Source: Escherichia coli (lineage in GTDB: Bacteria; Pseudomonadota; Gammaproteobacteria; Enterobacterales; Enterobacteriaceae). From it: a stretch of 64,000 nt of DNA. Position 1 is the first letter of the stretch. Each line of letters opens with the position of its first letter. The stretch lies in NCBI RefSeq assembly GCF_022846255.1, contig NZ_AP025682.1; one strand, given 5' to 3'. This document shows positions 1-35,240 of the stretch, one piece after another. Made by a program: the position numbers and the translations under genes. Under the pieces are notes generated by a model. That model had not been told where the DNA came from. It did no database searches and was given only the letters and a program-made list of their open reading frames with translations.

Positions 1-1173
1 TTGTCCCCCTTGCAGATAAGCGTTCGCCAGGTTGAGCTGCAACACCGGATTGGTGCGCAAATCGCGGGCATTTTTCAGGCGATTGATAGCGTCATTGGCT
101 TTGTTTTGCCCAAGATCGATATCGGTAGCCAGATCGAGATACCATGCGTTGCCAGGTTCTGCCGCCAGTAACGGTTGCAGCGTTTTACGCGCCTCGTCGT
201 ATTTATTGGCTTCCATCGCCTGTAAAGCACGACCATATTGCGCCGCTCGTTGCTGACGAACGTTTCCTTTCGCCCATTCATCCAGCAAATCACTGGTGAG
301 TTGGTTACGCCCTGAATTGTACATCCCCAGTGTGCGCACTTTTGCCAGATAGAAATCTTCTGACGATTGCACCACTATCGGGCGCATCTGATTGGCACGG
401 TTACGGGCATCAGCCAGACGGCTTTCCGGTAGTGGGTGAGTGAGCAGAATTTCTGGCGGGCGCGAAGAGTAACGCGCCTGATCGAGTAATTTTTCGAGGA
501 AGGTCGGCATCGCCTGCGGATCGAATCCCGAGCGTTGCAGCACCTGAATACCAATGCGGTCCGCTTCCTGTTCATTTTGCTGGGTGAAACTGATCATCCC
601 CTGGCGCGTTCCCGCCAGTGTACCGGTCAGCGCCGCCATCCCCGCCTGCGGACTGGCCATCGCCAGTAAAATAGAACCTAACGCGCCGACCCAGGTCAGC
701 GGCGCGCTGCGCTGCTGATCTTCCATCGCTCGCGCCAGGTGACGTTGGGTGACGTGGGAGATTTCGTGCGCCATAACTGAAGCCAGTTGACTTTCGTTAT
801 CGGAATAACGGAACAGGGCAGAGTGCAGCACCACGTTGCCGCCAAAGAAAGCAAAGGCGTTAATTTCGTCGTTGTTGATCAGAAAGAAATGAAACGGTGT
901 CTTAACCGAATTGGCATGCGAAACCAGACGCATTCCTAGCGAATTAATGTATTGCGTTAACAGCGGATCATTAATTAACGGCGCGCTGCCGCGTAACTGG
1001 CGGACATAATAGTCGCCCATCTGCATTTCCTGACCAATGGAAAGTGTGCTTCCTGCGGAGGTTCCCATATCCGGCAAGGTGTCTGCGCTGTCGGCAAACG
1101 CCGGGGCTACCTGACCAATGGTCATAGCAGCAATGAGGGTTGCAACCAGGTTTTTTTTCAACTGCCTGAACAT
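1..1173 (-). CDS. bepA: BepA (YfgC) periplasmic M48 zinc metalloprotease with C-terminal TPR domain; N-terminal ~391 codons present, 3' end runs beyond window start
   Basis: Reverse-strand translation from ATG near 1173 gives signal peptide [27 protein letters not shown] and HEISH zinc motif; frame stays open to position 1. Confidence 0.85.
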
Positions 1174-1385
1174 AACCTCTATCCTGTATTTCTGGAGATA
1201 GTCATTTGACCGATACTGTGAAATATCGTTCCCACCGCGCCGCCTTTGAGTGTAACGGCGAAGATTAGCCCACTCAAATGACTTTTCAGTTTCCTGAATC
1301 CGTCATAAAAAGCGAAGTCTTTTTTGTGACATTTCGATACAATTGCGGATCGCAATCCCGCTCTTGAGGTTCAGGGAAGGTCTGT

Positions 1386-2447
1386 ATGCTCGAAATGTTG
1401 ATGCAATGGTATCGCCGCCGTTTTAGCGACCCGGAAGCGATTGCCTTGCTGGTTATTTTGGTTGCTGGTTTTGGCATTATCTTTTTCTTTAGCGGCCTAC
1501 TCGCGCCGTTGCTGGTGGCTATTGTGCTGGCCTATTTACTGGAATGGCCGACTGTCCGCCTGCAGTCTATTGGCTGTTCCCGCCCTTGGGCGACATCTAT
1601 CGTGCTGATCCTGTTTGTGGGCATCCTGCTACTGATGGCGTTCGTGGTACTGCCTATCGCCTGGCAGCAGGGCATCTACTTAATCCGCGATATGCCAGGG
1701 ATGCTTAATAAACTTTCTGATTTTGCTGCCACGTTACCGCGCCGGTATCCGGCATTAATGGATGCGGGGATTATTGATGCAATGGCTGAAAATATGCGTA
1801 GCCGGATGCTGACCATGGGCGATTCGGTGGTGAAAATTTCCCTCGCCTCGTTGGTCGGTTTGCTGACCATTGCCGTCTATCTGGTGCTGGTGCCATTGAT
1901 GGTCTTCTTCCTGCTGAAAGACAAAGAGCAGATGCTGAACGCCGTTCGCCGGGTGCTGCCGCGCAACCGTGGACTGGCAGGACAGGTGTGGAAGGAGATG
2001 AATCAACAAATCACCAACTATATCCGCGGCAAAGTGCTGGAGATGATCGTGGTAGGGATCGCCACCTGGCTGGGGTTCTTGCTCTTTGGGCTGAACTATT
2101 CGCTGCTGCTGGCGGTGCTGGTCGGCTTCTCGGTACTTATTCCGTACATTGGCGCATTTGTGGTGACCATTCCGGTGGTTGGCGTGGCGCTATTCCAGTT
2201 TGGTGCTGGCACGGAATTCTGGAGCTGCTTCGCGGTGTATCTGATTATTCAGGCGCTGGACGGCAACCTGTTAGTACCGGTGTTGTTTTCCGAAGCGGTT
2301 AACCTGCATCCTCTGGTGATTATTTTATCGGTGGTGATCTTCGGTGGTTTGTGGGGATTCTGGGGCGTATTCTTCGCTATTCCATTGGCGACGCTGATCA
2401 AAGCCGTGATTCACGCCTGGCCTGATGGGCAAATCGCGCAAGACTGA
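1386..2447 (+). CDS. perM: AI-2E/PerM-family inner membrane transporter (353 aa)
   Basis: ORF track 1386..2447; strongly hydrophobic multi-TM protein; divergent from bepA as in E. coli. Confidence 0.85.
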   Translation: MLEMLMQWYRRRFSDPEAIALLVILVAGFGIIFFFSGLLAPLLVAIVLAYLLEWPTVRLQSIGCSRPWATSIVLILFVGILLLMAFVVLPIAWQQGIYLIRDMPGMLNKLSDFAATLPRRYPALMDAGIIDAMAENMRSRMLTMGDSVVKISLASLVGLLTIAVYLVLVPLMVFFLLKDKEQMLNAVRRVLPRNRGLAGQVWKEMNQQITNYIRGKVLEMIVVGIATWLGFLLFGLNYSLLLAVLVGFSVLIPYIGAFVVTIPVVGVALFQFGAGTEFWSCFAVYLIIQALDGNLLVPVLFSEAVNLHPLVIILSVVIFGGLWGFWGVFFAIPLATLIKAVIHAWPDGQIAQD

Positions 2448-2545
2448 CCTTCAGCGAAAAAATTTGAAACGAGTGTTGCAGGGCAGTGAGACGATTTGAG
2501 ATGTGCTGGCCGCAAGCGCAGCCAGCACGGAATGGAGCAAAGTAA

Positions 2546-3016
2546 TCAGGCGTGTTCTTTCAGCCAGTTCAGCACAACGTCGTGGTGATTGCTGGTTTTG
2601 AAATCGTCAAAAACATGTTCGATTTTGCCATCAGCGTCAATCAGGAAGCTGATGCGATGAATACCATTGTAGGTTTTGCCCATGAAGGACTTTTCACCCC
2701 AGACGCCGAATTGTTCGCACACCTGGTGGTCCTCATCAGACAGGAGCGTAAAGTTAAGCAGCTCTTTTTCCGCAAAACGGGAGAGTTTTTCGGGTTTATC
2801 GGTGCTGATACCCAGCACATCAACGCCCGCTTTTTTCAACTCATCCATGTTATCGCGTAAGCCGCAGGCCTGTACGGTACAGCCGGGGGTCATGGCTTTC
2901 GGGTAGAAATAAACCAGAACACGCTGTCCCTGGAAGTCGGTCAAATTAACTTGTTCTCCGTCTTGATCCGGCAAGCTAAATTTCGGTGCGATATCACCGG
3001 CTTTCAGTGGATTCAT
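2546..3016 (-). CDS. bcp: thiol peroxidase Bcp (peroxiredoxin, 156 aa)
   Basis: ORF track; peroxidatic cysteine motif KAMTPGCTVQACG. Confidence 0.95.
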   Translation of the reverse strand: MNPLKAGDIAPKFSLPDQDGEQVNLTDFQGQRVLVYFYPKAMTPGCTVQACGLRDNMDELKKAGVDVLGISTDKPEKLSRFAEKELLNFTLLSDEDHQVCEQFGVWGEKSFMGKTYNGIHRISFLIDADGKIEHVFDDFKTSNHHDVVLNWLKEHA

Positions 3017-3588
3017 TACTTAACTCCATCCTGTTCATCATGTTGGGAATAATTGACGACGTTAATACTGCCTTGTGCATTGAGTTCTGTACATAGGGCT
3101 TTGAACGCTTGCTCAATATTTGCTGCGTCCGCAGATGCGGGGCTGTGGGCAGTAATTTGAATATGCAACTGCGCAGCCCGTTCATTTTCAGCAGGTTGCG
3201 TGCGTGACACCAGCTCCGCAATGTTCATATGATGCGCGTCGAAAAGTGCTGTGAAGCGTTCAATTAAATGCGGGGAGTCTGCCACATCGACCTGAACCCA
3301 GACAGATGCTGGCATTGGCGGACGCGGACGCGCCGTAGTGCGCTTCATCACGATTAAAAGATCCAGCTCGGCACCTTTCAACGGTAACGTTGATTCAATC
3401 AGAGTAATGGCATTCCATGAACCGGAAAGCAGCATGATAAACGTGAACTCTTCTCCCAGCATCGCCAGGCGACTGTCTTCAATATTACAGCCGCAACTAC
3501 TGACATGACGGGTGATGGTGTTCACAATTCCAGGGCGATCGGCACCCAACGCAGTGATCACCAGATAATGTTGCGATGACAGTGTCAA
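3016..3588 (-). CDS. gcvR: glycine cleavage system transcriptional repressor GcvR (190 aa)
   Basis: ORF-track frame 3016..3654; recognised protein begins MTLSSQHYLVITALGADRPGIV at a TTG codon; the upstream ATG at 3654 would add 22 residues. Confidence 0.85.
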   Translation of the reverse strand: MTLSSQHYLVITALGADRPGIVNTITRHVSSCGCNIEDSRLAMLGEEFTFIMLLSGSWNAITLIESTLPLKGAELDLLIVMKRTTARPRPPMPASVWVQVDVADSPHLIERFTALFDAHHMNIAELVSRTQPAENERAAQLHIQITAHSPASADAANIEQAFKALCTELNAQGSINVVNYSQHDEQDGVK

Positions 3589-3733
3589 ACTGGTTATTCC
3601 TTCAAGGGGTGAGTTGTTCTTAAGGAAAGCATAAAAAAAACATGCATACAACAATCAGAACGGTTCTGTCTGCTTGCTTTTAATACCATACCAAACGTAC
3701 CATTGAGACACTTGTTTGCACAGAGGATGGCCC

Positions 3734-4612
3734 ATGTTCACGGGAAGTATTGTCGCGATTGTTACTCCGATGGATGAAAAAGGTAATGTCTGTCGGGCTA
3801 GCTTGAAAAAACTGATTGATTATCATGTCGCCAGCGGTACTTCGGCGATCGTTTCTGTTGGCACCACTGGCGAGTCCGCTACCTTAAATCATGACGAACA
3901 TGCTGATGTGGTGATGATGACGCTGGAGCTGGCTGACGGGCGCATTCCGGTGATTGCCGGGACCGGCGCTAACGCTACTGCGGAAGCCATTAGCCTGACG
4001 CAGCGCTTCAATGACAGTGGTATCGTCGGCTGCCTGACGGTAACCCCTTACTACAATCGTCCGTCGCAAGAAGGTTTGTATCAGCATTTCAAAGCCATCG
4101 CTGAACATACTGACCTGCCGCAAATTCTGTATAATGTGCCGTCCCGTACTGGCTGCGATCTGCTCCCGGAAACGGTGGGCCGTCTGGCGAAAGTAAAAAA
4201 TATTATCGGAATCAAAGAGGCAACAGGGAACTTAACGCGTGTAAACCAGATCAAAGAGCTGGTTTCAGATGATTTTGTTCTGCTGAGCGGCGATGATGCG
4301 AGCGCGCTGGACTTCATGCAATTAGGCGGTCATGGGGTTATTTCCGTTACGGCTAACGTCGCAGCGCGTGATATGGCCCAGATGTGCAAACTGGCAGCAG
4401 AAGGGCATTTTGCCGAGGCACGCGTTATTAATCAGCGTCTGATGCCATTACACAACAAACTATTTGTCGAACCCAATCCAATCCCGGTGAAATGGGCATG
4501 TAAGGAACTGGGTCTTGTGGCGACCGATACGCTGCGCCTGCCAATGACACCAATCACCGACAGTGGTCGTGAGACGGTCAGAGCGGCGCTTAAGCATGCC
4601 GGTTTGCTGTAA
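3734..4612 (+). CDS. dapA: 4-hydroxy-tetrahydrodipicolinate synthase DapA (292 aa)
   Basis: N-terminus [20 protein letters not shown]-track ORF begins 6 codons upstream at 3716. Confidence 0.95.
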
Positions 4613-4628
4613 AGTTTAGGGAGATTTG

Positions 4629-5663
4629 ATGGCTTACTCTGTTCAAAAGTCGCGCCTGGCAAAGGTTGCGGGTGTTTCGCTTGTTTTATTACTCGCTGCC
4701 TGTAGTTCTGACTCACGCTATAAGCGTCAGGTCAGTGGTGATGAAGCCTACCTGGAAGCGGCACCGCTTGCGGAGCTTCATGCCCCGGCTGGAATGATTT
4801 TGCCGGTGACCTCCGGTGATTATGCAATCCCGGTGACCAACGGTAGTGGTGCTGTCGGTAAGGCGCTGGACATTCGTCCACCAGCCCAGCCGTTGGCACT
4901 GGTTTCTGGCGCGCGTACCCAGTTCACGGGCGATACCGCTTCATTGCTGGTGGAAAATGGTCGTGGCAATACTCTGTGGCCGCAGGTGGTTAGCGTGCTG
5001 CAGGCGAAAAACTACACCATCACCCAACGTGATGATGCTGGTCAGACACTGACCACCGATTGGGTACAATGGAACCGTCTGGACGAAGACGAGCAGTATC
5101 GTGGTCGTTATCAAATCTCTGTTAAGCCGCAGGGTTATCAGCAGGCGGTTACGGTTAAACTGCTGAACCTGGAACAGGCGGGCAAACCGGTCGCAGACGC
5201 GGCTTCCATGCAGCGTTACAGCACGGAGATGATGAACGTTATTTCCGCCGGTCTGGATAAATCTGCCACTGACGCCGCGAACGCTGCGCAAAATCGTGCC
5301 TCCACCACTATGGACGTACAAAGTGCAGCTGATGACACCGGTTTACCAATGCTGGTCGTACGCGGGCCGTTCAATGTGGTTTGGCAACGTCTGCCAGCTG
5401 CGCTGGAAAAAGTGGGCATGAAAGTGACTGACAGCACCCGTTCGCAGGGCAACATGGCCGTAACTTATAAGCCGCTGTCTGACAGCGAATGGCACGAACT
5501 GGGCGCGAGCGATCCAGGTCTGGCATCCGGTGACTATAAACTGCAGGTTGGCGATTTAGATAACCGCAGCAGCCTACAGTTCATCGATCCGAAAGGTCAT
5601 ACTCTGACTCAGAGTCAGAACGACGCGCTGGTAGCTGTCTTCCAGGCTGCGTTTAGCAAGTAA
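4629..5663 (+). CDS. bamC: outer membrane protein assembly factor BamC (NlpB) lipoprotein (344 aa)
   Basis: Signal peptide with lipobox LLLAAC; full-length match to recalled BamC. Confidence 0.95.
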
Positions 5664-5670
5664 AAATACA

Positions 5671-5696
5671 GGGCTGGAGTCATCCGGCCCTTTTTT
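5671..5696 (+). terminator. intrinsic terminator after bamC
   Basis: gggctggagtcatccggccc hairpin followed by tttttt. Confidence 0.6.
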
Positions 5697-5706
5697 CTGA
5701 TATGAT

Positions 5707-5722
5707 ACGCAAACGTGTGCGT
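5707..5722. promoter_or_regulatory. PurR operator (pur box) upstream of purC
   Basis: acgcaaacgtgtgcgt is 15/16 to the PurR box consensus ACGCAAACGTTTGCGT. Confidence 0.6.
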
Positions 5723-5764
5723 CGACAGAAAAACGCGATTTTAGCGGTAATTCGCACGAAATTT

Positions 5765-5820
5765 GTCTGTCGGACGTAGGTCGGATAAGGCGTTTACGCC
5801 GCATCCGACAAAACATCCGG
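5765..5820. repeat. REP (repetitive extragenic palindromic) element in purC leader
   Basis: gtaggtcggataaggcgtttacgccgcatccgacaa matches the canonical E. coli REP pattern. Confidence 0.75.
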
Positions 5821-5875
5821 CACACCAGACAGCAAAAGATTTTAAAACGTTAATTCACACCCAGGAGTGATAAAG

Positions 5876-6589
5876 ATGCAAAAGCAAGCTGAGTTGTATC
5901 GTGGTAAAGCGAAAACCGTATACAGCACGGAAAACCCGGACCTGTTGGTGCTCGAATTCCGCAATGATACGTCAGCAGGGGATGGCGCGCGCATTGAGCA
6001 GTTTGATCGCAAAGGTATGGTGAACAACAAGTTCAACTACTTCATTATGAGCAAACTGGCTGAAGCGGGTATCCCGACTCAAATGGAGCGTCTGCTCTCC
6101 GATACCGAATGTCTGGTGAAAAAGCTGGATATGGTGCCGGTTGAGTGTGTCGTGCGTAACCGTGCTGCTGGCTCTCTGGTGAAACGTCTTGGAATCGAAG
6201 AAGGTATTGAGCTGAACCCGCCACTGTTCGATCTGTTCCTGAAAAACGACGCCATGCACGATCCGATGGTCAACGAATCTTACTGCGAAACCTTTGGCTG
6301 GGTGAGCAAAGAGAATCTGGCGCGTATGAAAGAGCTGACCTACAAAGCGAACGACGTGCTGAAAAAACTGTTCGATGATGCAGGTCTGATTCTGGTCGAC
6401 TTCAAGCTGGAGTTTGGTCTGTACAAAGGCGAAGTGGTTCTGGGCGATGAGTTCTCCCCGGACGGCAGCCGCCTGTGGGACAAAGAAACGCTGGAGAAAA
6501 TGGATAAAGACCGTTTCCGCCAGAGCCTCGGTGGCCTGATCGAAGCCTATGAAGCCGTTGCCCGCCGCCTGGGTGTACAGCTGGACTGA
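5876..6589 (+). CDS. purC: phosphoribosylaminoimidazole-succinocarboxamide synthase PurC (237 aa)
   Basis: N-terminus [34 protein letters not shown]-track ORF begins 3 codons upstream. Confidence 0.95.
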
Positions 6590-6756
6590 TTTTTCTATTC
6601 ATCATCTTGCCGTGCTACTGGCACGGCAAGACAACCGCTCTCATAAGATGTGCATTGAACGCTCATTCCTCCGCCATTTCATCCCGCTTTCCTGTGGTAA
6701 TCTTCCTCTGAACCACCTACGATCATTTCTATAATGAATATAATGTTGAGGTATCT

Positions 6757-7620
6757 ATGCGTTGGCAAGGGCGACGTGAAAGTGACAATGTTGAAGACAG
6801 GCGCAACAGCTCTGGTGGTCCGTCTATGGGCGGTCCCGGTTTTCGCCTGCCAAGCGGTAAAGGCGGGCTGATTTTACTGATAGTCGTGCTGGTTGCAGGC
6901 TACTATGGCGTTGATTTAACCGGGTTGATGACCGGACAGCCGGTTTCCCAACAGCAATCAACGCGGTCAATTAGCCCTAATGAAGACGAAGCCGCAAAAT
7001 TCACCTCGGTGATTCTGGCAACCACGGAAGACACCTGGGGACAGCAATTCGAGAAGATGGGTAAAACCTATCAGCAACCGAAGCTGGTCATGTACCGTGG
7101 AATGACGCGTACCGGCTGCGGGGCGGGCCAGTCCATAATGGGGCCATTCTATTGCCCGGCGGATGGCACAGTTTATATCGATCTCTCCTTCTATGATGAC
7201 ATGAAAGACAAACTTGGCGCGGATGGCGATTTTGCCCAGGGGTACGTTATCGCTCATGAAGTCGGTCATCATGTGCAGAAACTGTTAGGCATCGAGCCGA
7301 AAGTTCGTCAACTGCAACAAAACGCGACGCAGGCGGAAGTAAACCGCTTATCTGTGCGTATGGAACTCCAGGCCGACTGTTTTGCCGGTGTATGGGGGCA
7401 TAGTATGCAGCAGCAAGGTGTTCTGGAAACTGGCGATCTGGAAGAGGCGCTGAACGCGGCGCAGGCCATCGGCGATGACCGTTTACAACAGCAAAGTCAG
7501 GGGCGAGTAGTACCAGACAGTTTCACTCATGGCACTTCTCAGCAACGCTACAGCTGGTTTAAACGTGGTTTCGACAGCGGCGATCCGGCACAATGCAATA
7601 CTTTTGGTAAAAGCATTTAA
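6757..7620 (+). CDS. ypfJ: YpfJ, putative zinc metallopeptidase (287 aa)
   Basis: HEVGHH zinc-binding motif; N-terminal TM segment; position between purC and tmcA. Confidence 0.85.
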
Positions 7621-7634
7621 CTTCCGGGGCAGGG

Positions 7635-9650
7635 ATGGCTGAACTGACTGCGCTTCACACATTAACAGCGCAAATGAAACGTGAAGGGATCCGCCGCTTG
7701 CTGGTGTTGAGCGGGGAAGAGCGTTGGTGTTTTGATCATGCGCTTAAGTTGCGTGATGCCTTACCTGGCGACTGGCTGTGGATTTCGCCGCAGCCAGATG
7801 CTGAAAACCACTGTTCTCCCTCGGCACTACAAACTTTACTTGGGCGCGAGTTCCGGCATGCGGTATTCGACGCCCGCCACGGCTTTGATGCCGCTGCCTT
7901 TGCGGCACTTAGCGGAACGTTGAAAGCGGGAAGCTGGCTGGTGTTGTTACTCCCTGTATGGGATGAGTGGGAAAACCAACCTGATGCCGACTCGCTGCGC
8001 TGGAGTGATTGCCCTGACCCTATTGCGACGCCGCATTTTGTCCTGCACCTCAAACGTGTACTTACGGCGAATAACGACGCCATCCTCTGGCGGCAAAACC
8101 AGCCGTTCTCGTTGGCGCATTTTACTCCCCGTACTGACTGGCACTCCGCTACCGGCGCACCACAACCAGAACAACAGCAACTCTTACAGCAGCTACTGAC
8201 CATGCCGCCGGGCGTGGCAGCGGTAACTGCTGCGCGTGGGCGCGGTAAGTCGGCGTTGGCAGGGCAACTCATTTCTCGTATTGCGGGCAGTGCGATTGTC
8301 ACCGCGCCCGCAAAAGCGGCAACGGATGTACTGGCACAATTTGCGGGCGAGAAGTTTCGCTTTATTGCACCGGATGCCTTGTTAGCCAGCGATGAGCAAG
8401 CCGATTGGCTGGTGGTCGATGAAGCCGCAGCTATACCTGCGCCGTTGTTGCATCAACTGGTATCGCGTTTTCCTCGAACGTTGTTAACCACTACGGTGCA
8501 GGGCTACGAAGGCACCGGACGTGGTTTTTTGCTGAAATTTTGCGCTCGCTTTCCGCATTTACACCGTTTTGAACTACAACAGCCGATCCGTTGGGCGCAG
8601 GGATGCCCGCTGGAAAAAATGGTTAGTGAGGCACTGGTGTTTGACGATGAAAACTTCACCCATACACCACAAGGCAATATCGTTATTTCCGCATTTGAAC
8701 AGACGTTATGGCGAAGCGAGCCAGAAACGCCGTTAAAGGTTTATCAATTATTGTCTGGTGCGCACTACCGGACTTCGCCGCTGGATTTACGCCGCATGAT
8801 GGATGCACCAGGTCAACATTTTTTACAGGCGGCTGGCGAAAACGAGATTGCCGGAGCGCTGTGGCTGGTGGATGAGGGTGGATTATCTCAAGAACTCAGT
8901 CAGGCGGTATGGGCGGGTTATCGTCGTCCACGGGGCAATCTGGTGGCTCAATCGCTGGCGGCGCACGGCAGCAATCCACTGGCGGCGACATTGCGCGGAC
9001 GGCGGGTCAGCCGGATAGCAGTTCATCCGGCGCGTCAGCGGGAAGGCACAGGGCGGCAACTTATTGCTGGTGCTTTGCAATATACGCAGGACCTCGACTA
9101 TCTTTCGGTGAGTTTTGGTTACACCGGGGAATTATGGCGTTTCTGGCAACGCTGCGGTTTTGTGCTGGTGCGAATGGGTAATCATCGTGAAGCCAGCAGC
9201 GGTTGCTATACGGCGATGGCGCTGTTACCGATGAGTGATGCGGGTAAACAACTGGCTGAACGTGAGCATTACCGTTTACGTCGCGATGCGCAAGCTCTCG
9301 CGCAGTGGAATGGCGAAATGCTTCCTGTTGATCCACTAAACGATGCCGTCCTTTCTGACGACGACTGGCTTGAACTGGCCGGTTTTGCTTTCACTCATCG
9401 TCCGCTATTAACATCGTTAGGTTGCTTATTGCGTTTGCTACAAACCAGCGAACTGGCATTACCGGCGCTGCGTGGGCGTTTACAGAAAAACGCCAGTGAC
9501 GCGCAGTTATGTACCACACTTAAACTTTCAGGCCGTAAGCTGTTACTGGTTCGCCAGCGGGAAGAGGCCGCGCAGGCGCTATTCGCACTTGATGATGTTC
9601 GCACTGAGCGTCTGCGCGATCGCATAACGCAATGGCAATTTTTTCACTGA
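7635..9650 (+). CDS. tmcA: tRNA(Met) cytidine acetyltransferase TmcA (671 aa)
   Basis: ATPase/helicase-like region with GRGKS Walker A plus C-terminal acetyltransferase region; length matches TmcA. Confidence 0.9.
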   Translation: MAELTALHTLTAQMKREGIRRLLVLSGEERWCFDHALKLRDALPGDWLWISPQPDAENHCSPSALQTLLGREFRHAVFDARHGFDAAAFAALSGTLKAGSWLVLLLPVWDEWENQPDADSLRWSDCPDPIATPHFVLHLKRVLTANNDAILWRQNQPFSLAHFTPRTDWHSATGAPQPEQQQLLQQLLTMPPGVAAVTAARGRGKSALAGQLISRIAGSAIVTAPAKAATDVLAQFAGEKFRFIAPDALLASDEQADWLVVDEAAAIPAPLLHQLVSRFPRTLLTTTVQGYEGTGRGFLLKFCARFPHLHRFELQQPIRWAQGCPLEKMVSEALVFDDENFTHTPQGNIVISAFEQTLWRSEPETPLKVYQLLSGAHYRTSPLDLRRMMDAPGQHFLQAAGENEIAGALWLVDEGGLSQELSQAVWAGYRRPRGNLVAQSLAAHGSNPLAATLRGRRVSRIAVHPARQREGTGRQLIAGALQYTQDLDYLSVSFGYTGELWRFWQRCGFVLVRMGNHREASSGCYTAMALLPMSDAGKQLAEREHYRLRRDAQALAQWNGEMLPVDPLNDAVLSDDDWLELAGFAFTHRPLLTSLGCLLRLLQTSELALPALRGRLQKNASDAQLCTTLKLSGRKLLLVRQREEAAQALFALDDVRTERLRDRITQWQFFH

Positions 9651-9723
9651 CTCCTTCAATTTTCTCCCATGGTCATTGTGAGTCAGCGGCGTAAAATTAA
9701 TGACATCAGTTAAGGAGTTCGCC

Positions 9724-10422
9724 ATGAAACATGACCATTTTGTTGTTCAAAGCCCGGATAAACCAGCACAACAGTTGTTACTGCTTTTCCACGGTGTCGG
9801 GGATAACCCGGTGGCAATGGGGGAAATAGGTAGCTGGTTTGCGCCGCTGTTTCCTGATGCGCTGGTGGTGAGTGTCGGTGGCGCGGAGCCGAGCGGTAAT
9901 CCGGCGGGGCGTCAGTGGTTTTCGGTGCAGGGTATTACGGAAGATAATCGCCAGGCGCGTGTGAATGCCATCATGCCGACGTTTATTGAGACGGTGCGCT
10001 ACTGGCAGAAACAAAGCGGAGTAGGGGCTAATGCCACGGCGCTAATCGGTTTCTCACAAGGCGCGATTATGGCGCTGGAGAGCATTAAAGCCGAACCGGG
10101 CCTTGCTTCGCGCGTCATTGCCTTCAACGGACGCTACGCGAGCCTGCCGGAAACCGCGTCTACAGCCACAACAATTCACTTGATTCATGGCGGTGAAGAT
10201 CCGGTTATCGATCTGGCGCATGCGGTTGCGGCGCAGGAAGCGTTAATCAGTGCCGGTGGCGATGTGACGCTGGATATCGTGGAGGATTTAGGCCATGCGA
10301 TCGACAATCGCAGTATGCAATTAGCCCTGGATCACTTGCGTTATACCATTCCGAAACATTATTTCGACGAAGCGCTAAGCGGCGGTAAGCCTGGCGATGA
10401 TGATGTGATTGAAATGATGTAA
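9724..10422 (+). CDS. ypfH: YpfH esterase, phospholipase/carboxylesterase family (232 aa)
   Basis: Serine hydrolase motif GFSQGA; start at MKHDHFVVQSPDK within ORF-track ORF 9700..10422. Confidence 0.85.
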   Translation: MKHDHFVVQSPDKPAQQLLLLFHGVGDNPVAMGEIGSWFAPLFPDALVVSVGGAEPSGNPAGRQWFSVQGITEDNRQARVNAIMPTFIETVRYWQKQSGVGANATALIGFSQGAIMALESIKAEPGLASRVIAFNGRYASLPETASTATTIHLIHGGEDPVIDLAHAVAAQEALISAGGDVTLDIVEDLGHAIDNRSMQLALDHLRYTIPKHYFDEALSGGKPGDDDVIEMM

Positions 10423-10427
10423 TAATA

Positions 10428-10498
10428 GCCGGGTAGGTCTGATAAGACTGTATCAGGCATCATGGCCGGATGCGGCGTTAACGCCTTATCCGGCCACT
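10428..10498. repeat. tandem REP units (BIME-like) between ypfH and ypfN
   Basis: gggtaggtctgataagactgtatcaggcatc followed by ggccggatgcggcgttaacgccttatccggcc. Confidence 0.75.
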
Positions 10499-10502
10499 TA
10501 GC

Positions 10503-10703
10503 TTACTTCTTCGGTTGATCCTTTTTCGGCCAGTCGTCGTCATCGTCCCACTTATCGTTGAAATCACGATGCGGGGGAAGCTCCGGCTTGTTGGCGAGAA
10601 ATTTCTTATGGTCGACGCGCTTGAGATCTTTAATCACGTTCAGCAGGACGCCTACCAAAAAGACAATCACCAGAATCCACCAATATTTAGCCAGCCAGTC
10701 CAT
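10503..10703 (-). CDS. ypfN: small membrane protein YpfN (66 aa) with acidic C-terminus
   Basis: [27 protein letters not shown]... single TM helix; start at internal Met of ORF-track ORF. Confidence 0.8.
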
Positions 10704-10730
10704 GCTTATTTCCTCTTGCAGAACCACTCA

Positions 10731-11858
10731 TCAGGCGACGAGCTGTTCCATGATACGTTGATACATACGGGCAAGTAGCTGCAGGTCGGCAGCGTTCACA
10801 CATTCATTAATTTTATGAATTGTGGCATTGACCGGCCCGAGTTCCACCACCTGCGCCCCCATGCGGGCAATAAAGCGCCCGTCGGACGTTCCGCCTGTGG
10901 TCAGTAGCTGCGGTTTAATTTCATTATAGTGCTCAACCGCGTTAACGACCGCATCCACCAGTTTACCGCGCGCGGTCAAAAATGGCTGCCCGGAAAGCCA
11001 CCAATCCACCGTATAGCGCAGTTGATGTTTTTCAAGCAGGGCAAGCACCTGCGCTTTGATCATCTCATCCGTCAGTTCGGTGCTAAAGCGGAAGTTAAAC
11101 TGCACAAACAGTTCACCTGGAATAACGTTGTTACTGCCCGTTCCCGCCTGAATATTGGCAATCTGCATACTGGTCGCCGGGAAGAATTCATTACCCTGAT
11201 CCCACTCAATAGCCACTAATTCATTAATGAAAGGTGCTGCGCGATGTACCGGATTGTCAGCCAGATGTGGGTAGGCAACATGCCCCTGAACGCCATGAAT
11301 GGTAAGGTTGCAGGTTAACGATCCGCGACGACCATTTTTCACCACATCACCTACCACTTCGATACTCGACGGTTCGCCAACCAGACAGTAATCGAGACGC
11401 TCATTACGCGCCATTAACGCTTCGACGACTTTTACCGTACCATTGTGGGCACTAGCTTCTTCATCAGAGGTGATCAGAAATGCCAGTCGCCCCGTATGGT
11501 TGGGATGTTGTGCGACAAAGCGTTCTGCCGCTACTACCATCGCCGCCAGCGAGCCTTTCATATCTGCCGCACCGCGCCCGAATAACATGCCGTCACGAAT
11601 GGTTGGTTCAAACGGCGGATTGATCCAACGATCGGCGTCGCCAGGCGGCACCACGTCGGTATGCCCGGCAAAGGCCAATGTTTCACCTTGCCCACGCCAT
11701 GCCCAAAAATTCTGCGTATCGGCAAAGTCCATGCGTTCAACGGTAAAACCGATCGCCTGCAAACGTTCAATCAACAAAGCCTGGCATCCTGCGTCATCAG
11801 GACTCAGGGAAGGGCGGCGAATAAGCTGTTGTGTCAGCTCAATAACCGGGCACGACAT
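10731..11858 (-). CDS. dapE: succinyl-diaminopimelate desuccinylase DapE (375 aa)
   Basis: ORF track; M20 peptidase family; [27 protein letters not shown]-terminus. Confidence 0.95.
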
Positions 11859-11861
11859 AGA

Positions 11862-12236
<375 letters not shown>

Positions 12237-12598
12237 TTATGAGAATAAATACTCATTTAAAGGTGAAAACATTTTGCCTGCAAATGATTATCAGGAAATA
12301 TAACATTATCGAAGTATTCAAATTAACAACCATTAAATAACATTAAACATTTTTAACGTAAACATTAAGAATATTCATCTTGTTATCTGTCTGTATTTTA
12401 ACCAGAATTAAATCAGTATTAGATGCCGTATGAATATCTCGAAATGTTGCGGTGCATCACATACAAATCATCACCGCAGGACCATAGTATTTACATAAGG
12501 TTTGTCCCCCGGAGGTAGTCATCACAGCAATCGAGTAAATTAGCTTCACCACGGTATATTGTTTCCGTAGAATACCCATAATTATAAGAGAGGTTGTT

Positions 12599-12658
12599 AT
12601 GATTGAACGTGAACTGGGGAACTGGAAAGACTTTATCGAAGTTATGCTTCGTAAGTAA
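12599..12658 (+). CDS. ypfM: small protein YpfM (19 aa, MIERELGNWKDFIEVMLRK)
   Basis: Short ORF with GAGAGG Shine-Dalgarno about 7 nt upstream, in the AT-rich yffB-acrD intergenic region; below the ORF-track length cutoff. Confidence 0.6.
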   Translation: MIERELGNWKDFIEVMLRK

Positions 12659-12722
12659 TTCCTGAGACAAAGTACAAACAGCAAGAACCCGCTGAGCAGG
12701 TTCTTAATCGGAAAGTTGAAAA

Positions 12723-12752
12723 GGGCGACACATTGGCATGTCGCCTTTTTTA
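12723..12752. terminator. bidirectional intrinsic terminator (ypfM / acrD)
   Basis: ggcgacacattggcatgtcgcc hairpin flanked by T-run on plus strand and adjacent to acrD stop. Confidence 0.6.
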
Positions 12753-12756
12753 TTGC

Positions 12757-15700
12757 TTATTCCGGGCGCGGCTTCAGCGGGAAGCGGCGGCGCACCAGCA
12801 CAAAGAACAGCGGCACGAAGTAAATAGCCAGAATAGTGGCCGAAATCATCCCGCCCATTACGCCAGTACCCACCGCATGCTGACCACCGGAACCGGCACC
12901 TGTGCTGGTTGCCATTGGCAATACGCCGAAGATAAATGCCAGCGAGGTCATCAGAATCGGGCGTAAACGCTGACGGCAGGCGTGGAGCGTCGCTTCAAAC
13001 AGGTCGTGGCCTTTTTGGTTCATCTCGTTAGCAAACTCGACGATCAGGATAGCGTTTTTCGCCGATAAACCAATGACCGTTAACAGACCCACCTGGAAGT
13101 AAACATCGTTTTCCAGCCCGCGCATCCAGGTTGCCAGCAGCGCGCCGATAACCCCCAGCGGCACGACCAGCATTACCGAGAACGGCACCGACCAGCTTTC
13201 ATACAATGCCGCCAGACACAGGAATACCACCAGCAAGGAAATGGCGTACAGCGCCGGAGCCTGCGCGCCGGAAAGCCGCTCCTGATACGACATCGCCGTC
13301 CACTCCAGACCAAAGCCGTTTGGCAACTGCTTCACTAACGATTCCATAATATCCATCGCCGTACCGGTACTGACCCCCGGTGCGGCTTCCCCAACAATCT
13401 CAACCGCAGAATAACCATTATAGCGTTCCAGACGCGGCGAGCCTGTCTCCCAGCGTGAGGTCGCGAAAGCAGAGAAGGGCACCATGCCGCCATCTTTATT
13501 TCGGACATACCAGAGATTGATGTCATCTGGCAGCATGCGATACGGCGCAGCTGCCTGCACATAGACTTTCTTCACGCGACCGCGATCCATAAAGTCATTC
13601 ACATAGCTAGAACCCCAGGCGGTTTGCAGTGTGTCGTTAATATCGTCGATAGCAACGCCCAGCGCCTGAGCTTTACGCTGGTCGATATCAATCTGCAACT
13701 GCGGACTGTCGTCGAGGCCGTTATGGCGCACACGGGTTAGCTCCGGGTTTTCCGCTGCCAGCGCCAGCAACTGGTTTCGTGCTGCCATCAGCGCATCGTG
13801 ACCCGCTCCAGCGTGGTCCTGCAACTCCATATCAAAACCCGCAGAACTACCAAGACCGCTAATTGCTGGCGGGCTGCTGGCGATAACGCGAGCTTCTTTA
13901 ATCTTGTTAAACGCCTTCGTTGCACGCTCGATAATGGCAAACGAGGTGCCGGTCTTACTGTCGCGTTCGCTCCAGTCTTTCAGGCGGATAAACATTCGCG
14001 CCACGTTTTGCCCGTTACCCCCAGGGCCAGAACCCACGGTGGCAAACACCGACATGATGTTGTCTTTTTCATGGGTGAAGTAATATTTCTCGATTTGCTC
14101 AACGACTTTCAGGGTCTGTTGCTGGGTTGAACCGCTGGGCAACTGTACCGAGGTAGTAAACATGCCACGGTCTTCCAGCGGTAAGAACGACGTCGGCAAA
14201 CGCAGGAACAGGAACACCATGCCGCCAAGCAGCAGGACATAAATCACAATCCAGCGCAGGCTACGGTGGAGAATTTTCGCCACCCCTTTTTCGTAGCGTT
14301 CGGCGTTGCGGTTAAACATCTGGTTAAACCAGGCAAAAAAGCCTTTTTGCCCGTGATGCTCACCTTTTTTCAGTGGCTTAAGTAGCGTGGCACACAGAGC
14401 AGGAGTGAGGATCATCGCTACCAGTACTGACAGCACCATCGCCGCAACAATGGTAATAGAGAACTGGCGATAGATGGCACCGGTGGTGCCGCCGAAGAAG
14501 GCCATTGGCACAAATACCGCCGAAAGCACCATCGCAATCCCGACCAGTGCCCCCTGGATCTGCCCCATCGATTTACGTGTGGCTTCGCGAGGAGTGAGTC
14601 CTTCCTCACTCATAATACGTTCGACGTTTTCCACCACCACGATGGCATCATCCACCAGCAGACCGATCGCCAGCACCATCGCGAACATGGTTAAGGTGTT
14701 GACACTGTAACCGAAGGCGTAAAGCACGGAGAAGGTTCCCATCAACACCACTGGCACGGCGATAGTGGGTATCAGCGTGGCGCGGAAGTTTTGCAGGAAC
14801 AGATACATAACGAGGAAAACCAGGGCGATAGCTTCCAGAAGCGTTTTCACCACGTCTTCAATGGAGGCTTTAACAAACGAGGTGGTTTCATACGCCACCT
14901 TGTATTCCAGTCCGTGTGGAAAATACTGCGCCAGCTCGTCGAGACGATTGAGCACCAGCTCCGCTGTCGCCATTTCGTTCGCGCCGGAGGCCAGTTTAAC
15001 CCCCAGCCCGGAGGCTGGCTTACCATTGAAGCGGCTAAGATAATCGTATTTCTCCGCCCCCATTTCGACGGTGGCGACATCGCCCAGCCTTACCTCTGAG
15101 CCGTCCTGATTCACCCGCAAGGTGATATCGCGGAACTGTTCTGGTGTTTGCAGCAGTGACTGGGCGTTAATGGTGGCGTTGAGCGCCTGCTTATCGACGG
15201 AAGGCGTACCACCAAGTTGCCCAACCGCAATCTGCGCGTTCTGTGATTCAATGGCATCGGTGACATCTTTAGCCGTCATCTGGAAACTGTTGAGTTTCGC
15301 CGGGTCCAGCCAGATACGCATGGAATATTGCGAACCATAGGCATCGATATCCCCGACGCCATTCACGCGGCTTAACGGGTCCTGAATATTACTGGCAACA
15401 TAATCGGCAATATCCTGCTTATCCATCGAACCATCGGTAGAGACGAAGGCAATGGTCAGAATGTTGGTATCGCCGGTTTTACGCACCGTCACGCCCTGAT
15501 TTTGCACCGCCTGCGGTAACTTTCGCATGGCTGATTGCAGCTGGTTTTGTACTTGCTGCACGGCTTCGTCCGGATCGGTGCCTGCTTTAAAACTTAACGT
15601 GACAGATGCCTGACCGGTGCCGCTGCTCTGAGATGACATATACATCAGATTATCGAGGCCCGTCATATTTTGCTCGATAACCTGGGTCACGGTGTTTTCC

Positions 15701-15870
15701 AGCGTCTGGGCCGATGCGCCGGGATAGTTAGCGGTCACTCGCACATTCGGTGGCGCGAGATCGGGGTATTGTTCAACGGGCAATGAAAAAATCGCCAGGG
15801 TACCTGTCAGACACAACAGGATTGCCAGCACCCAGGCAAAAATGGGGCGATCAATAAAGAAATTCGCCAT
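12757..15870 (-). CDS. acrD: RND-family aminoglycoside efflux pump AcrD (1037 aa)
   Basis: ORF track; full-length 12-TM RND transporter beginning [18 protein letters not shown]. Confidence 0.97.
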
Positions 15871-16033
15871 TAAAAGAGGACCTCGTGTTTCTGCGTATCG
15901 TTGTAGGCTTGGCTTGCTTCACTGTAGCGGCAAGGTACGAGCCAATCGTGGAGAAAAAAAGGAGTTAATGTAAATTATCATGCCCTTTTATACTGAACCT
16001 TAAGTGCCACTATTCTTTGGTCAATAAGAGGCA

Positions 16034-17749
16034 TTACATCAGCTGACTTTCCTCACCCTCCGCAGAGCGAAAGCTAATACTCACTAACGTGCCGCCGCCG
16101 GAAGGTTGTGAAAAAGTCAGCGTCCCACCCAATCTTTCCGCGCGTTCGCGCATGATATTCAGACCATAATGACCTTCGGGTTCTTTCGGTTCACCGATGC
16201 CAATCCCGTTATCACGGATATAAACCGTGTGATTGCCGTCCGGCGCAGTGACGCAGCTAACGGCGATTTCGCTGGCGTTGGCGTGCTTCATCGCATTCAG
16301 CACCGCTTCGCGAATAATTTGCAACAAATGCACCTGCATTTGCGCATCCAGCGCCAGGGTTGGCAGACGGCAGTCGAGGGTCAGTTTGGCGCTGGTTTGA
16401 TTTTGTAACGTATCCAGCATTTCACGTAGCGCAGAGGGGAGATCCGCCTGCTGTAGCGTCAGGCGGAAAGTAGTTAACAGCTCGCGTAACTGCCGATAAG
16501 CATCATTCAGCGCCTGGGAGAAATCGGCCATGATACTTTGTGCGGTGGCGTTATCTTCCGGTATCGAACGCTTCAGTAACGTCAACTGGATACGTAAGTA
16601 AGAAAGTACCTGAGCCAGCGAGTCGTGCAATTCGCGGGCGATGGTCGCACGTTCTTCCATCAACAATAACTGCTGAAAATGCTTCTGCGCCTGATTAAAG
16701 TACAAACCGCGTCCCAGCATCGACGAAACGCTGTTAAGCAGCGGTTCTGATGATGAAACGTGACTATTTTGCCAGTGCAGTTCGCCGTAAACCGTCTCTT
16801 GCATTGTCACCGGTAAAATCTGCATCGGCAATTCCGGGTTTGGCTGCCCTTCGCTAATCCGCCAGTTGTCACCGACATTTAACTCCAGATATTCAGCCGC
16901 TTCATTGTCGCGAACAATCTGCAAAATATGGCGGAAACAATGCACATCAATCTGGCTGGTGTTCAGCGCCTGCGAACACTGATACAACACCTCCAGACGA
17001 CGCTTGGCCTCGTGGAGATCGCGGGTCTTTTCTTCTACTGACGCCTCCAGCGAACGGTACAATTTATGCAGCTCGCTCGACATCTGGTTAAAGGTTTTTG
17101 CAAGCAGGCCAAGCTCATTCGGCAGGCTGGTATCCAGCGGCGGCGAGTCGAACTGTCCGTGTTCAATACGCTGACTGGCGGTAACCAGCTGATTCAGCGG
17201 GGCAACCACCTGATGGCGTATGCGGCGCAAAGTAAAAAAGACCAGCGTGAAAATACCGATGCCGCCAGCCAGGGAAATCGCCACCACCAGCAGCATTTTG
17301 CGTTCAGCGTAGTGCTGTAAAGCCAGTACGAACAGGTCTATCTGATTAACATAATTATTAATATTGGCCTGATACCACGGCAAGTCGCCCTTGCTGAGCC
17401 GATTATTCATCTCCAGCCAGTTGGCATTCAGATGCGCATAGCGGGTTTTTACTGCCTCTGGCACATACCAGACGTTGAGATTGGTTAATACCGGTGAATG
17501 CAGTGCCTGCTGAAATAACTGGCGATGTGCATTGAGTTGTGGACTGCCACTTTGCAAGTCGTAGCCCAGGCGGTAACTCTGCATACGCAGCGATCCGGCA
17601 ATATTGATAGCCTCAGCGTCGCGTAAACTGCTCGCCAGCGTTAGCAGAGCGATACCCGTGGAAAGAATCGACAGCAGCACAATGTAAAAAAAGGCCCGGG
17701 CCAGACTGGCCGAGACGGGTCGTTTAACAATCACACGCGTCTTCTCCAC
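16034..17749 (-). CDS. narQ: nitrate/nitrite sensor histidine kinase NarQ
   Basis: Two TM segments, H-box ELHDSLAQ, C-terminal HATPase; the recognised 566-aa protein begins MIVKRPV, probably at a GTG 5 codons inside the ORF-track ORF. Confidence 0.92.
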   Translation of the reverse strand: MEKTRVIVKRPVSASLARAFFYIVLLSILSTGIALLTLASSLRDAEAINIAGSLRMQSYRLGYDLQSGSPQLNAHRQLFQQALHSPVLTNLNVWYVPEAVKTRYAHLNANWLEMNNRLSKGDLPWYQANINNYVNQIDLFVLALQHYAERKMLLVVAISLAGGIGIFTLVFFTLRRIRHQVVAPLNQLVTASQRIEHGQFDSPPLDTSLPNELGLLAKTFNQMSSELHKLYRSLEASVEEKTRDLHEAKRRLEVLYQCSQALNTSQIDVHCFRHILQIVRDNEAAEYLELNVGDNWRISEGQPNPELPMQILPVTMQETVYGELHWQNSHVSSSEPLLNSVSSMLGRGLYFNQAQKHFQQLLLMEERATIARELHDSLAQVLSYLRIQLTLLKRSIPEDNATAQSIMADFSQALNDAYRQLRELLTTFRLTLQQADLPSALREMLDTLQNQTSAKLTLDCRLPTLALDAQMQVHLLQIIREAVLNAMKHANASEIAVSCVTAPDGNHTVYIRDNGIGIGEPKEPEGHYGLNIMRERAERLGGTLTFSQPSGGGTLVSISFRSAEGEESQLM

Positions 17750-17939
17750 AAAAAATCATTAATGTTCCAGTTCGCTGAAACGAAATTTAGTCAGTGATGG
17801 GATTATTTGATCTGCCACAGTTTATAGCGAAATAGTTACTTATTCTGGGCACATGAACATTGCCGATTCCCCTGTAAGTCGGGTAATAACAACACTCATA
17901 TAAAGAATAAGGTTTTTACAACCAAAAAAGAAGGTCGTT

Positions 17940-19919: not shown

Positions 19920-19986
19920 TAGCCTGCGCAGACAAACCCGACTTCACAGCGTAAGATAATTGTTCATTTCGCGCTGTGGAGTCGGT

Positions 19987-20562
19987 ATGACGCAACAAAT
20001 CACCCTCGTTAAAGACAAAATTCTCTCCGATAACTATTTCACCCTGCACAACATTACTTACGATCTCACGCGCAAAGATGGCGAAGTTATCCGCCATAAA
20101 CGTGAAGTTTACGATCGCGGTAATGGTGCGACGATCCTCCTGTACAACGCGAAGAAAAAGACCGTGGTTCTGATTCGCCAGTTCCGCGTCGCTACCTGGG
20201 TTAATGGCAATGAAAGCGGGCAACTGATTGAAACCTGCGCCGGGCTGCTGGATAACGACGAACCGGAAGTGTGCATTCGCAAGGAAGCGATTGAAGAGAC
20301 GGGCTATGAAGTTGGCGAAGTCCGCAAATTATTTGAACTGTATATGTCGCCAGGCGGTGTGACTGAGCTAATCCACTTTTTTATCGCCGAATACAGTGAC
20401 AGCCAGCGCGCTAACGCCGGTGGTGGTGTCGAAGATGAAGATATTGAAGTGCTTGAGCTGCCGTTCAGCCAGGCGCTGGAGATGATTAAAACCGGCGAGA
20501 TACGTGACGGTAAGACGGTGTTATTGCTTAACTATTTGCAAATGTCACATTTAATGGACTGA
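19987..20562 (+). CDS. nudK: GDP-mannose pyrophosphatase NudK (Nudix hydrolase, 191 aa)
   Basis: Nudix box [22 protein letters not shown]; start at [11 protein letters not shown] within ORF-track ORF. Confidence 0.9.
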
Positions 20563-21731: not shown

Positions 21732-21744
21732 ACAAAATGGCGGG

Positions 21745-21800
21745 GACATGTAGACCGGATAAGACGCACCAGCGTCACATCCGACAATCAGCATCCGGCG
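21745..21800. repeat. REP-like element between ypfG and tktB
   Basis: tgtagaccggataagacgcaccagcgtcacatccgacaatcagcatccggcg. Confidence 0.65.
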
Positions 21801-35123: not shown

Positions 35124-35135
35124 AAGTGTACGGAC

Positions 35136-35240
35136 AGTCCCCTCGCCCCTTTGGGGAGAGGGTTAGGGTGAGGGGAACAGAGTCGCGCCGGTGCAAACAA
35201 TTACCCTCACCCCGGCCCCTCGGCTTCCAGAGTGAGGGAA
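35136..35240. repeat. GC-rich imperfect palindromic repeat in the eutG-eutH spacer
   Basis: cccctcgcccctttggggagaggg and gggtgagggg...ccctcacccc inverted repeats; family not assigned with confidence. Confidence 0.55.

Follow-up and report, generated by a model that had tools for sequence, protein, structure and literature searches.

The hyf-focB segment is absent from the perM-bcp junction of a B2-type Escherichia coli chromosome: anatomy and possible origin of a 98-bp spacer

The window analyzed here is a stretch of 64,000 nucleotides of Escherichia coli DNA (contig NZ_AP025682.1, assembly GCF_022846255.1), taken as a whole. Within its positions 1 to 6600, the genes follow one another in the order bepA (minus strand, to 1173), perM/yfgO (plus), bcp (minus), gcvR (minus), dapA (plus), bamC (plus), and purC (plus). 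Our subject is the junction at which perM and bcp converge, which comprises the following features:

1386..2447, plus strand: perM/yfgO, complete gene (353 aa) for an AI-2E family transporter, called yfgO in the annotation of matching genomes
2448..2545, no strand assigned: convergent spacer of 98 bp, homologous throughout to the initial ~118 bp between bcp and hyfA in K-12
2450..2455, no strand assigned: TTCAGC (GCTGAA in the K-12 orientation), single retained repeat copy and junction point, 2 bp after the perM stop
2464..2478, minus strand: CAACACTCGTTTCAA (bcp sense), degenerate palindrome copy, from sequence comparison with CGACACnnnGTGyCGA
2493..2500, minus strand: CTCAAATC (bcp sense), degenerate copy of the block GATCACATT, at a point where the K-12-type flank has ~20 extra bases
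2503..2528, minus strand: stem-loop, 17 nt after the bcp stop, with 11 pairs and a GCUU loop in the bcp sense
2546..3016, minus strand: bcp, thiol peroxidase, complete, 156 aa

perM and bcp are each intact, their products being 98.9% (PerM/YfgO) and 99.4% (Bcp) identical to those of K-12, and their stop codons bound the spacer, with the perM TGA ending at 2447 and the bcp stop reading TCA on the plus strand at 2546 to 2548. K-12 MG1655, whose hyf operon was reportedly described by Andrews et al. in 1997, has the order gcvR-bcp-hyfABCDEFGHIJ-hyfR-focB, converging on yfgO (perM); the K-12 annotation thereby confirms the order bcp-hyf-focB-perM that the original prediction had given. The claim built on that order, namely, that hyf-focB is absent here and that bcp and perM converge across a 98-bp spacer, is borne out by the open reading frames and stop codons, and re-examination revealed no hyf gene adjoining bcp, the two stops lying exactly 98 bp apart. 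The cluster had been correctly identified as missing, but its size had been given as about 13 genes, where K-12 has 12 (hyfABCDEFGHIJ, hyfR, and focB; 13,746 bp). A 13.7-kb segment is truly missing.

The only match to a Hyf protein within the 64-kb window was a 38% ferredoxin-domain match inside aegA. The spacer itself holds open reading frames of only 24 to 34 aa, all without support, and a promoter and terminator scan of 2200 to 2800 left it empty. Rfam, searched over 1 to 6000 at E <= 1 and over the whole window at gathering thresholds, likewise returned no match in the spacer, which does not correspond to a REP/BIME sequence or any other curated RNA family (Rfam, E <= 1), and a tRNA search of the window found none. 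The sole Rfam match in 1 to 6000 lies between bamC and purC, where positions 5779 to 5823 resemble naRNA4 below the threshold (40.3 bits, against a gathering threshold of 59.5; E = 1e-4); this match is most likely a REP-type element.

The comparison with hyf-positive and hyf-negative genomes that had been suggested along with the original prediction was carried out with a 698-bp probe spanning the junction, searched against 5,426 complete E. coli genomes. The probe matched contiguously in 1,126 of them, including the B2 strains Nissle 1917 and NRG 857C (coverage of 100%, with identities of 99.7% and 99.4%, respectively), and it split into two places in almost all of the remaining genomes. A K-12 hyfG query found its target in 4,295 of the 5,426 genomes, as a single copy in each and always on the chromosome, never on a plasmid. 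Together, the hyfG-positive and the empty-junction genomes account for 5,421 of the total, with 5 genomes in neither class. Since it is present in 1,126 of the 5,426 genomes, the junction is a lineage-level allele and no private event, and the absence of hyf-focB is almost certainly real and a known B2-type allele. An exact-protein lookup with Bcp returned B2-like contexts only and no further species.

The hyf-less condition is already known and ordinary for phylogroup-B2-type strains, having been in print since 2009. Touchon et al. (2009, PLoS Genet, Table 5; PMC2617782) reported hyfABCDEFGHIJ to be specifically absent in B2, and a later study found B2 to be negatively associated with the Hyf system (Touchon et al., 2020; PMC7314097). 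In a third paper (González-Alba et al., 2019; PMC6896753), an F/G/B2 lineage was described as having lost hyf, an account that fits poorly since the phylogroup F strain IAI39 is hyf-positive, with borders as in K-12. The hyfR gene of IAI39 (L087, 16673 to 18685) is an annotated pseudogene with an internal stop, and the hyf operon of this strain may be transcriptionally crippled.

Beyond the junction, collinearity of the window with Nissle 1917 extends over 49 kb, the sole stretches in that span unaligned to Nissle 1917 being 21739 to 21788 and 35125 to 35260, both intergenic according to the Nissle annotation. For positions 1 to 20000, the best match among the 5,426 complete E. coli genomes was 99.4% over 20 kb, with 426 records reaching 99%; the source strain is without a close representative among these genomes. 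Judged by its collinearity with the annotated Nissle 1917 sequence, the window has eutA next to eutB at about 36589 to 39365, in an uninterrupted eut operon; in K-12, the CPZ-55 prophage presumably lies between these two genes.

Compared base by base with K-12, the spacer falls into two parts. The first 50 nt after the bcp stop, read in the bcp sense and including the hairpin, are near-identical in the window and K-12, and the remaining 48 nt give a gapped alignment, at ~75 to 80% identity, to the ~70 nt that follow in the K-12 bcp-hyfA region. The score of the window's distal 56 nt against that intergenic region was reached by 0 of 1,000 shuffles. The alignment terminates in GCTGAA, of which K-12 and IAI39 have a second copy 2 bp beyond the perM stop, and in both strains the two copies bracket the 13,746-bp hyf-focB segment. 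A repeat that flanks the intact allele, with one copy in the short allele, is the pattern of a microhomology scar. Nevertheless, because about two 6-bp repeats are expected by chance between intergenic regions of 250 and 37 bp, the repeat alone is little proof, and it is absent from the hyf borders of Enterobacter sp. Bisph1. Around the spacer, the only other repeats, the hairpin aside, were weak pairs at chance level. The K-12 segment has no mobility gene among its 12 annotated genes, no terminal inverted repeats were seen in its end sequences, and the borders show none of the hallmarks of a transposon or integrative island (transposase, integrase, terminal inverted repeats, or a tRNA/att site). 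Its G+C content of 53.8%, against 51.7 to 52.9% in the flanks, is uninformative.

The better-conserved part of the spacer holds a hairpin, whose plus strand reads GTGCTGGCCGC AAGC GCAGCCAGCAC, with 8 perfect pairs extending to 11. Its presence had been correctly noted, but its stem, first given as 8 bp, comes to 11 pairs in the bcp sense; the extension holds one C.A on the plus strand, which is a U.G wobble on the bcp-sense strand. The energy of the structure is -21.4 kcal/mol in the bcp sense and -17.4 kcal/mol in the perM sense. A perfect 8-bp inverted repeat with a loop of 3 to 12 nt appeared in 49 of 5,000 dinucleotide shuffles of the spacer, and the hairpin is therefore unlikely to have arisen by chance. 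It is conserved across Escherichia, with 98.5% of cells paired in the bcp sense in a comparison of six sequences. One compensatory change, from U-A to C-G, was seen, along with three positions with G.U wobbles that are valid in the bcp sense only and are C.A mismatches in the perM sense; in the covariation control for the six sequences, 87 of 500 shuffles reached the observed values.

This strand asymmetry, together with conservation in hyf-positive and hyf-negative genomes, points to a conserved structure of the bcp mRNA 3' end. The hairpin would act at the RNA level in the bcp transcript, probably as a 3'-end stabilizer or else as a noncanonical or factor-assisted termination structure, roles that we propose because the spacer is without a canonical intrinsic terminator in either direction. 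No U tract follows the stem on either strand; on this point the original prediction agrees with both the sequence and the terminator scan, which was blank over the spacer. Several other genera have a canonical bidirectional terminator in the same gap, e.g., AAAAAGCCGAC...GTCGGCTTTTT.

The less-conserved part of the spacer can be compared with the intergenic regions of hyf-positive relatives, given that hyf lies at exactly the perM/bcp site, in the same order, in two other taxa, Enterobacter sp. Bisph1 and a soil MAG. The gene focB, present in K-12 and Enterobacter sp. Bisph1, is missing between hyfR and perM in the soil MAG (L018, 11060 to 11240). Three collinear blocks, GATCACATT, CGACACnnnGTGyCGA, and ATTTTTyGC, recur between bcp and hyfA in K-12/IAI39, Bisph1, and the MAG, all of them on the bcp side of the junction; toward hyfA, these regions have TGACCATCAyTTTTGT in common, plus a sigma-54 promoter. 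Both hyf-less spacers, that of the window and that of E. albertii, have the bcp-side blocks in degenerate form, the latter spacer with the degenerate palindrome copy CGACACTCGTTTCAA.

In the hyf-positive taxa, the palindrome CGACACnnnGTGyCGA is located ~105 bp upstream of the hyfA sigma-54 promoter; in K-12, CGACACGGGTGTCG stands ~105 bp upstream of TGGCATCCTTTATGCA. The K-12 palindrome has GTGTCGA in common with the FhlA-controlled hycA-hypA region and resembles the TGTCGA/TCGACA repeats there. The order of its half-sites differs from that of the published FhlA consensus, TGWC-N6-GWCA (PMC7658346). From these comparisons, we infer that the copy in the window may be a decayed putative HyfR/FhlA upstream activating site.

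Across genera, the likeness of the bcp-side blocks appears only moderately significant. The observed score was reached by 7 of 1,000 shuffles for the distal part of the E. albertii spacer against the MAG region, by 45 of 1,000 for the K-12 bcp-side part against Bisph1, and by 74 of 1,000 for the same K-12 part against the MAG. The distal part of the window itself gave nonsignificant results against both the Bisph1 region (533 of 1,000 shuffles) and the MAG region (596 of 1,000), and for that reason the argument for homology leans on E. albertii and the K-12 flank as intermediates. When 56 hyf-less spacers, 53 of them from other genera, were compared with the K-12 flank, a collinear alignment was obtained only for Escherichia. 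Taken together, these comparisons support, to a moderate degree, a descent of the empty Escherichia spacer from the intergenic DNA between bcp and hyfA; the bcp-side blocks could instead predate the insertion. A separate match to the K-12-specific flank (CGTGATCAAGATCA / ACTTCTCGTGATCAAGATCA...CCCCTGC) occurs after bcp in an Arsenophonus endosymbiont (L058, ~11050 to 11135); 0 of 300 shuffles reached it, and we judged it to be probably chance or coding sequence.

The spacer of E. albertii is collinear with that of the window from end to end, the junction GCT(G/A)AAGG and the stop codon included. Over the spacer stretch, the window is 86 to 88% identical to E. albertii, and the K-12 flank is 68 to 77% identical to it. 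Because E. albertii has the same junction, the scar allele would be older than E. coli or would have been exchanged among Escherichia species. In 100-nt segments compared between the window and K-12, identity is 97 to 100% from bcp to purC and 76 to 82% in the two segments spanning the spacer, with bcp itself at least 99% identical. A shorter, 62-bp hyf-less junction occurs in L004, a genome labeled E. coli that is ~93% identical to E. coli; we considered an independent deletion in L004 and dropped it in favor of an E. albertii/B2-type scar with a further loss of ~36 bp.

The perM genes of K-12 and IAI39 are 98% identical to each other, and each is 93 to 94% identical to perM of the window and Nissle 1917. 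This difference is distributed as a mosaic, with the window 84 to 90% identical to K-12 and IAI39 in 1486 to 1785, 94 to 99% identical to K-12 elsewhere in perM, and 95 to 100% identical to the two strains in the stretches next to the patch. Within 1486 to 1785, the window resembles E. albertii (90 to 96%) and K-12 resembles L004 (89 to 94%), resemblances that divide perM into two old trans-specific allele classes. In bepA, positions 295 to 494 are 88 to 90% identical to K-12 inside a gene that is otherwise 98 to 100% identical, and this stretch looks like another imported recombination tract. The avian strain CT30 combines a B2-type spacer with an IAI39-like perM, a pairing from which we conclude that the scar allele moves by homologous recombination. 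To judge from these identities, the scar and the hyf-bearing alleles parted either before E. coli diversified or outside that diversification.

To place the junction in a wider frame, we carried out an ancestry scan with PerM as the query and one genome per species, which gave 80 loci. The Escherichia outgroups sampled were E. albertii and the divergent L004, with E. fergusonii, other cryptic clades, and Salmonella outside the sample. At 56 of the 80 loci, perM and bcp converge over ~45 to 265 bp without hyf, and these loci range over E. albertii, Enterobacter, Yersinia, Serratia, Proteus, Vibrio, and Photobacterium. At the scale of the order, perM-bcp adjacency is ancestral and hyf is an insertion.

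Unrelated cargo occupies the perM/bcp gap at L005 to L007, L016, L020, L029, L048, and L049. In Citrobacter, the gap holds Gate-domain proteins and an amidohydrolase. The cargo of L016 and L020 consists of a CdaR-type regulator, a GntP permease, and a glycerate kinase, with ABC-transporter-like open reading frames added in L020. L029 has Dak1 and iron-dependent alcohol dehydrogenase genes, L048 has a macro-domain protein, and L049 has DUF1345 and VTT/DedA proteins. No integrase or transposase was seen in the part of the listed open reading frames that was scanned, and the perM/bcp gap may serve repeatedly as a slot for cargo. In 2017, Oliveira, Touchon and Rocha reportedly described integration hotspots of the core genome that are without mobility genes.

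The original prediction had left open whether this lineage never had hyf or had lost it by a clean deletion; that choice can now be refined to a lineage-level allele, for which an old scar is the better reading. We estimate at roughly 0.6 the probability that the 98-bp spacer is an old deletion scar, with the direction of the change, a deletion, being what we infer, and we prefer it of the two options because the spacer resembles that part of the DNA between bcp and hyfA that is distal to the promoter. An old deletion between two GCTGAA copies, one in the bcp-hyfA region just downstream of the candidate hyfA upstream activating site and the other 2 bp past the perM stop, would have removed hyf-focB and left behind the bcp 3' stem-loop, a decaying copy of the hyfA upstream palindrome, and one copy of the repeat. 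The scar allele would then pass from one background to another through homologous recombination in its flanking genes, and this strain would have inherited or recombined it, with no hyf deletion of its own. The following observations weigh against a deletion scar. The hyf-less convergent adjacency is the norm from Vibrio to Escherichia, and an insertion is needed at some depth; the 6-bp repeat found at both borders also looks like a target-site duplication; and the sampled outgroups, E. albertii and L004, are without hyf, parsimony thus favoring a gain in non-B2 E. coli.

The strongest competing explanation, which we regard as possible but on balance doubtful, is that the site was never occupied and the 98-bp spacer is the uninterrupted ancestral Escherichia spacer. 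As to mechanism, hyf-focB might, in a scenario to which we give the same minority weight, have been inserted 2 to 8 bp past the perM stop in a non-B2 ancestor or have come in, along with diverged flanks, by homologous recombination with DNA of a hyf-positive relative, the 6-bp target-site duplication being created or carried along. This explanation draws on the ancestral state of perM-bcp adjacency across Enterobacterales and Vibrionaceae, on the hyf-less state of E. albertii and L004, and on the spacer of the window being nearer to E. albertii than the K-12 flank is. It would also account for perM and the flank of hyf-positive strains forming a separate allele class (93 to 94% to B2 perM), as if they had arrived with the island, and a single gain explains the distribution if B2 branches first (Touchon 2009). 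However, the supposed insert does not include the hyfA-upstream blocks common to the three hyf-positive taxa; these blocks are degenerate in the empty Escherichia spacers and missing from the 53 loci of other genera, and neutral intergenic DNA should have lost its recognizability over a time reaching back to before the genera diverged. Moreover, the borders are without transposase, integrase, tRNA, and terminal inverted repeats, and the repeat is missing at the borders of Enterobacter sp. Bisph1.

The deletion scar can be set in a still older, trans-species frame, one that we offer tentatively and hold to be rather unlikely as a whole. Under this scenario, hyf-focB would have been deleted once, before the E. 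coli/E. albertii split, leaving a scar with its decaying putative HyfR/FhlA site as a relic, and the hyf genes of all non-B2 E. coli would have been either reacquired later or maintained for a long time as an alternative allele. Under the same joint and tentative grading, homologous recombination would have brought in hyf along with diverged sequence, ~1 kb of it in perM and ~70 bp in the flank. If true, such a history would contradict the published view of hyf loss in B2, and, more broadly, cargo would enter the perM/bcp gap, across genera, by homologous recombination in its flanks and not by means of mobile-element machinery.

That hyf-focB was cleanly deleted from a K-12-like chromosome in recent times, whether in this strain or within B2, is highly improbable. 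The GCTGAA microhomology at both K-12 borders would suit such an event, as would the description of hyf as lost in the F/G/B2 lineage (PMC6896753), but the spacer is not simply the two K-12 flanks joined, being ~20 bp shorter, and about 1 in 4 positions differ in the 60 bp adjoining the junction, against 97 to 100% identity in bcp to purC. Furthermore, the junction is common to 1,126 genomes and E. albertii, and IAI39, of phylogroup F, keeps hyf. An assembly or sequence artifact collapsing the region, in favor of which we could count nothing, has a negligible probability given the identical arrangement in >1,000 independently finished genomes and the 49-kb collinearity with Nissle 1917.

Whichever its origin, the empty junction marks the window as B2-type E. 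coli without hydrogenase 4, and the Hyf system has been tied, in the papers cited above, to survival at acid pH, pH control, and environmental or plant-associated over host-associated lifestyles. The comparisons indicate that the two junction alleles long predate the B2 split and that homologous recombination moves them, and the age of the alleles and their recombination bear on how "lineage-specific gene loss" in E. coli is to be read. The junction opens no new mechanism or family.

Several known systems provide points of comparison. The perM/bcp interval is like core-genome hotspots without mobility genes in that, in other genera, it houses metabolic genes of various kinds; here it is without cargo. 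The GC-rich 11-bp stem-loop 17 nt past the bcp stop recalls a Rho-independent terminator but differs in having no U tract on either strand and falls outside the definition. The missing segment is the K-12 hyf operon, encoding formate hydrogenlyase-2 (Finney et al., 2019; PMC7384014), with its 12 genes, its sigma-54 promoter, and focB as the last gene, converging on perM; of this operon, the window has only ~50 nt of the far-upstream region, in degenerate form. As in microhomology-mediated deletions, a 6-bp repeat flanks the intact segment, the short allele keeps one copy, and the neighboring genes are untouched, but here the event would be old, the scar being ~20 to 25% diverged from the extant intact flank. 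Finally, the junction agrees with the B2-specific gene absences of Touchon et al. (2009, 2020) in lacking hyfABCDEFGHIJ, and the window is 99.4 to 99.7% identical to B2 references at this point. Those studies dealt with presence and absence only, and what is added here is the base-level anatomy, comprising the borders, the 6-bp repeat, the homology of the spacer with its hyfA-upstream remnant, and the corresponding junction in E. albertii.
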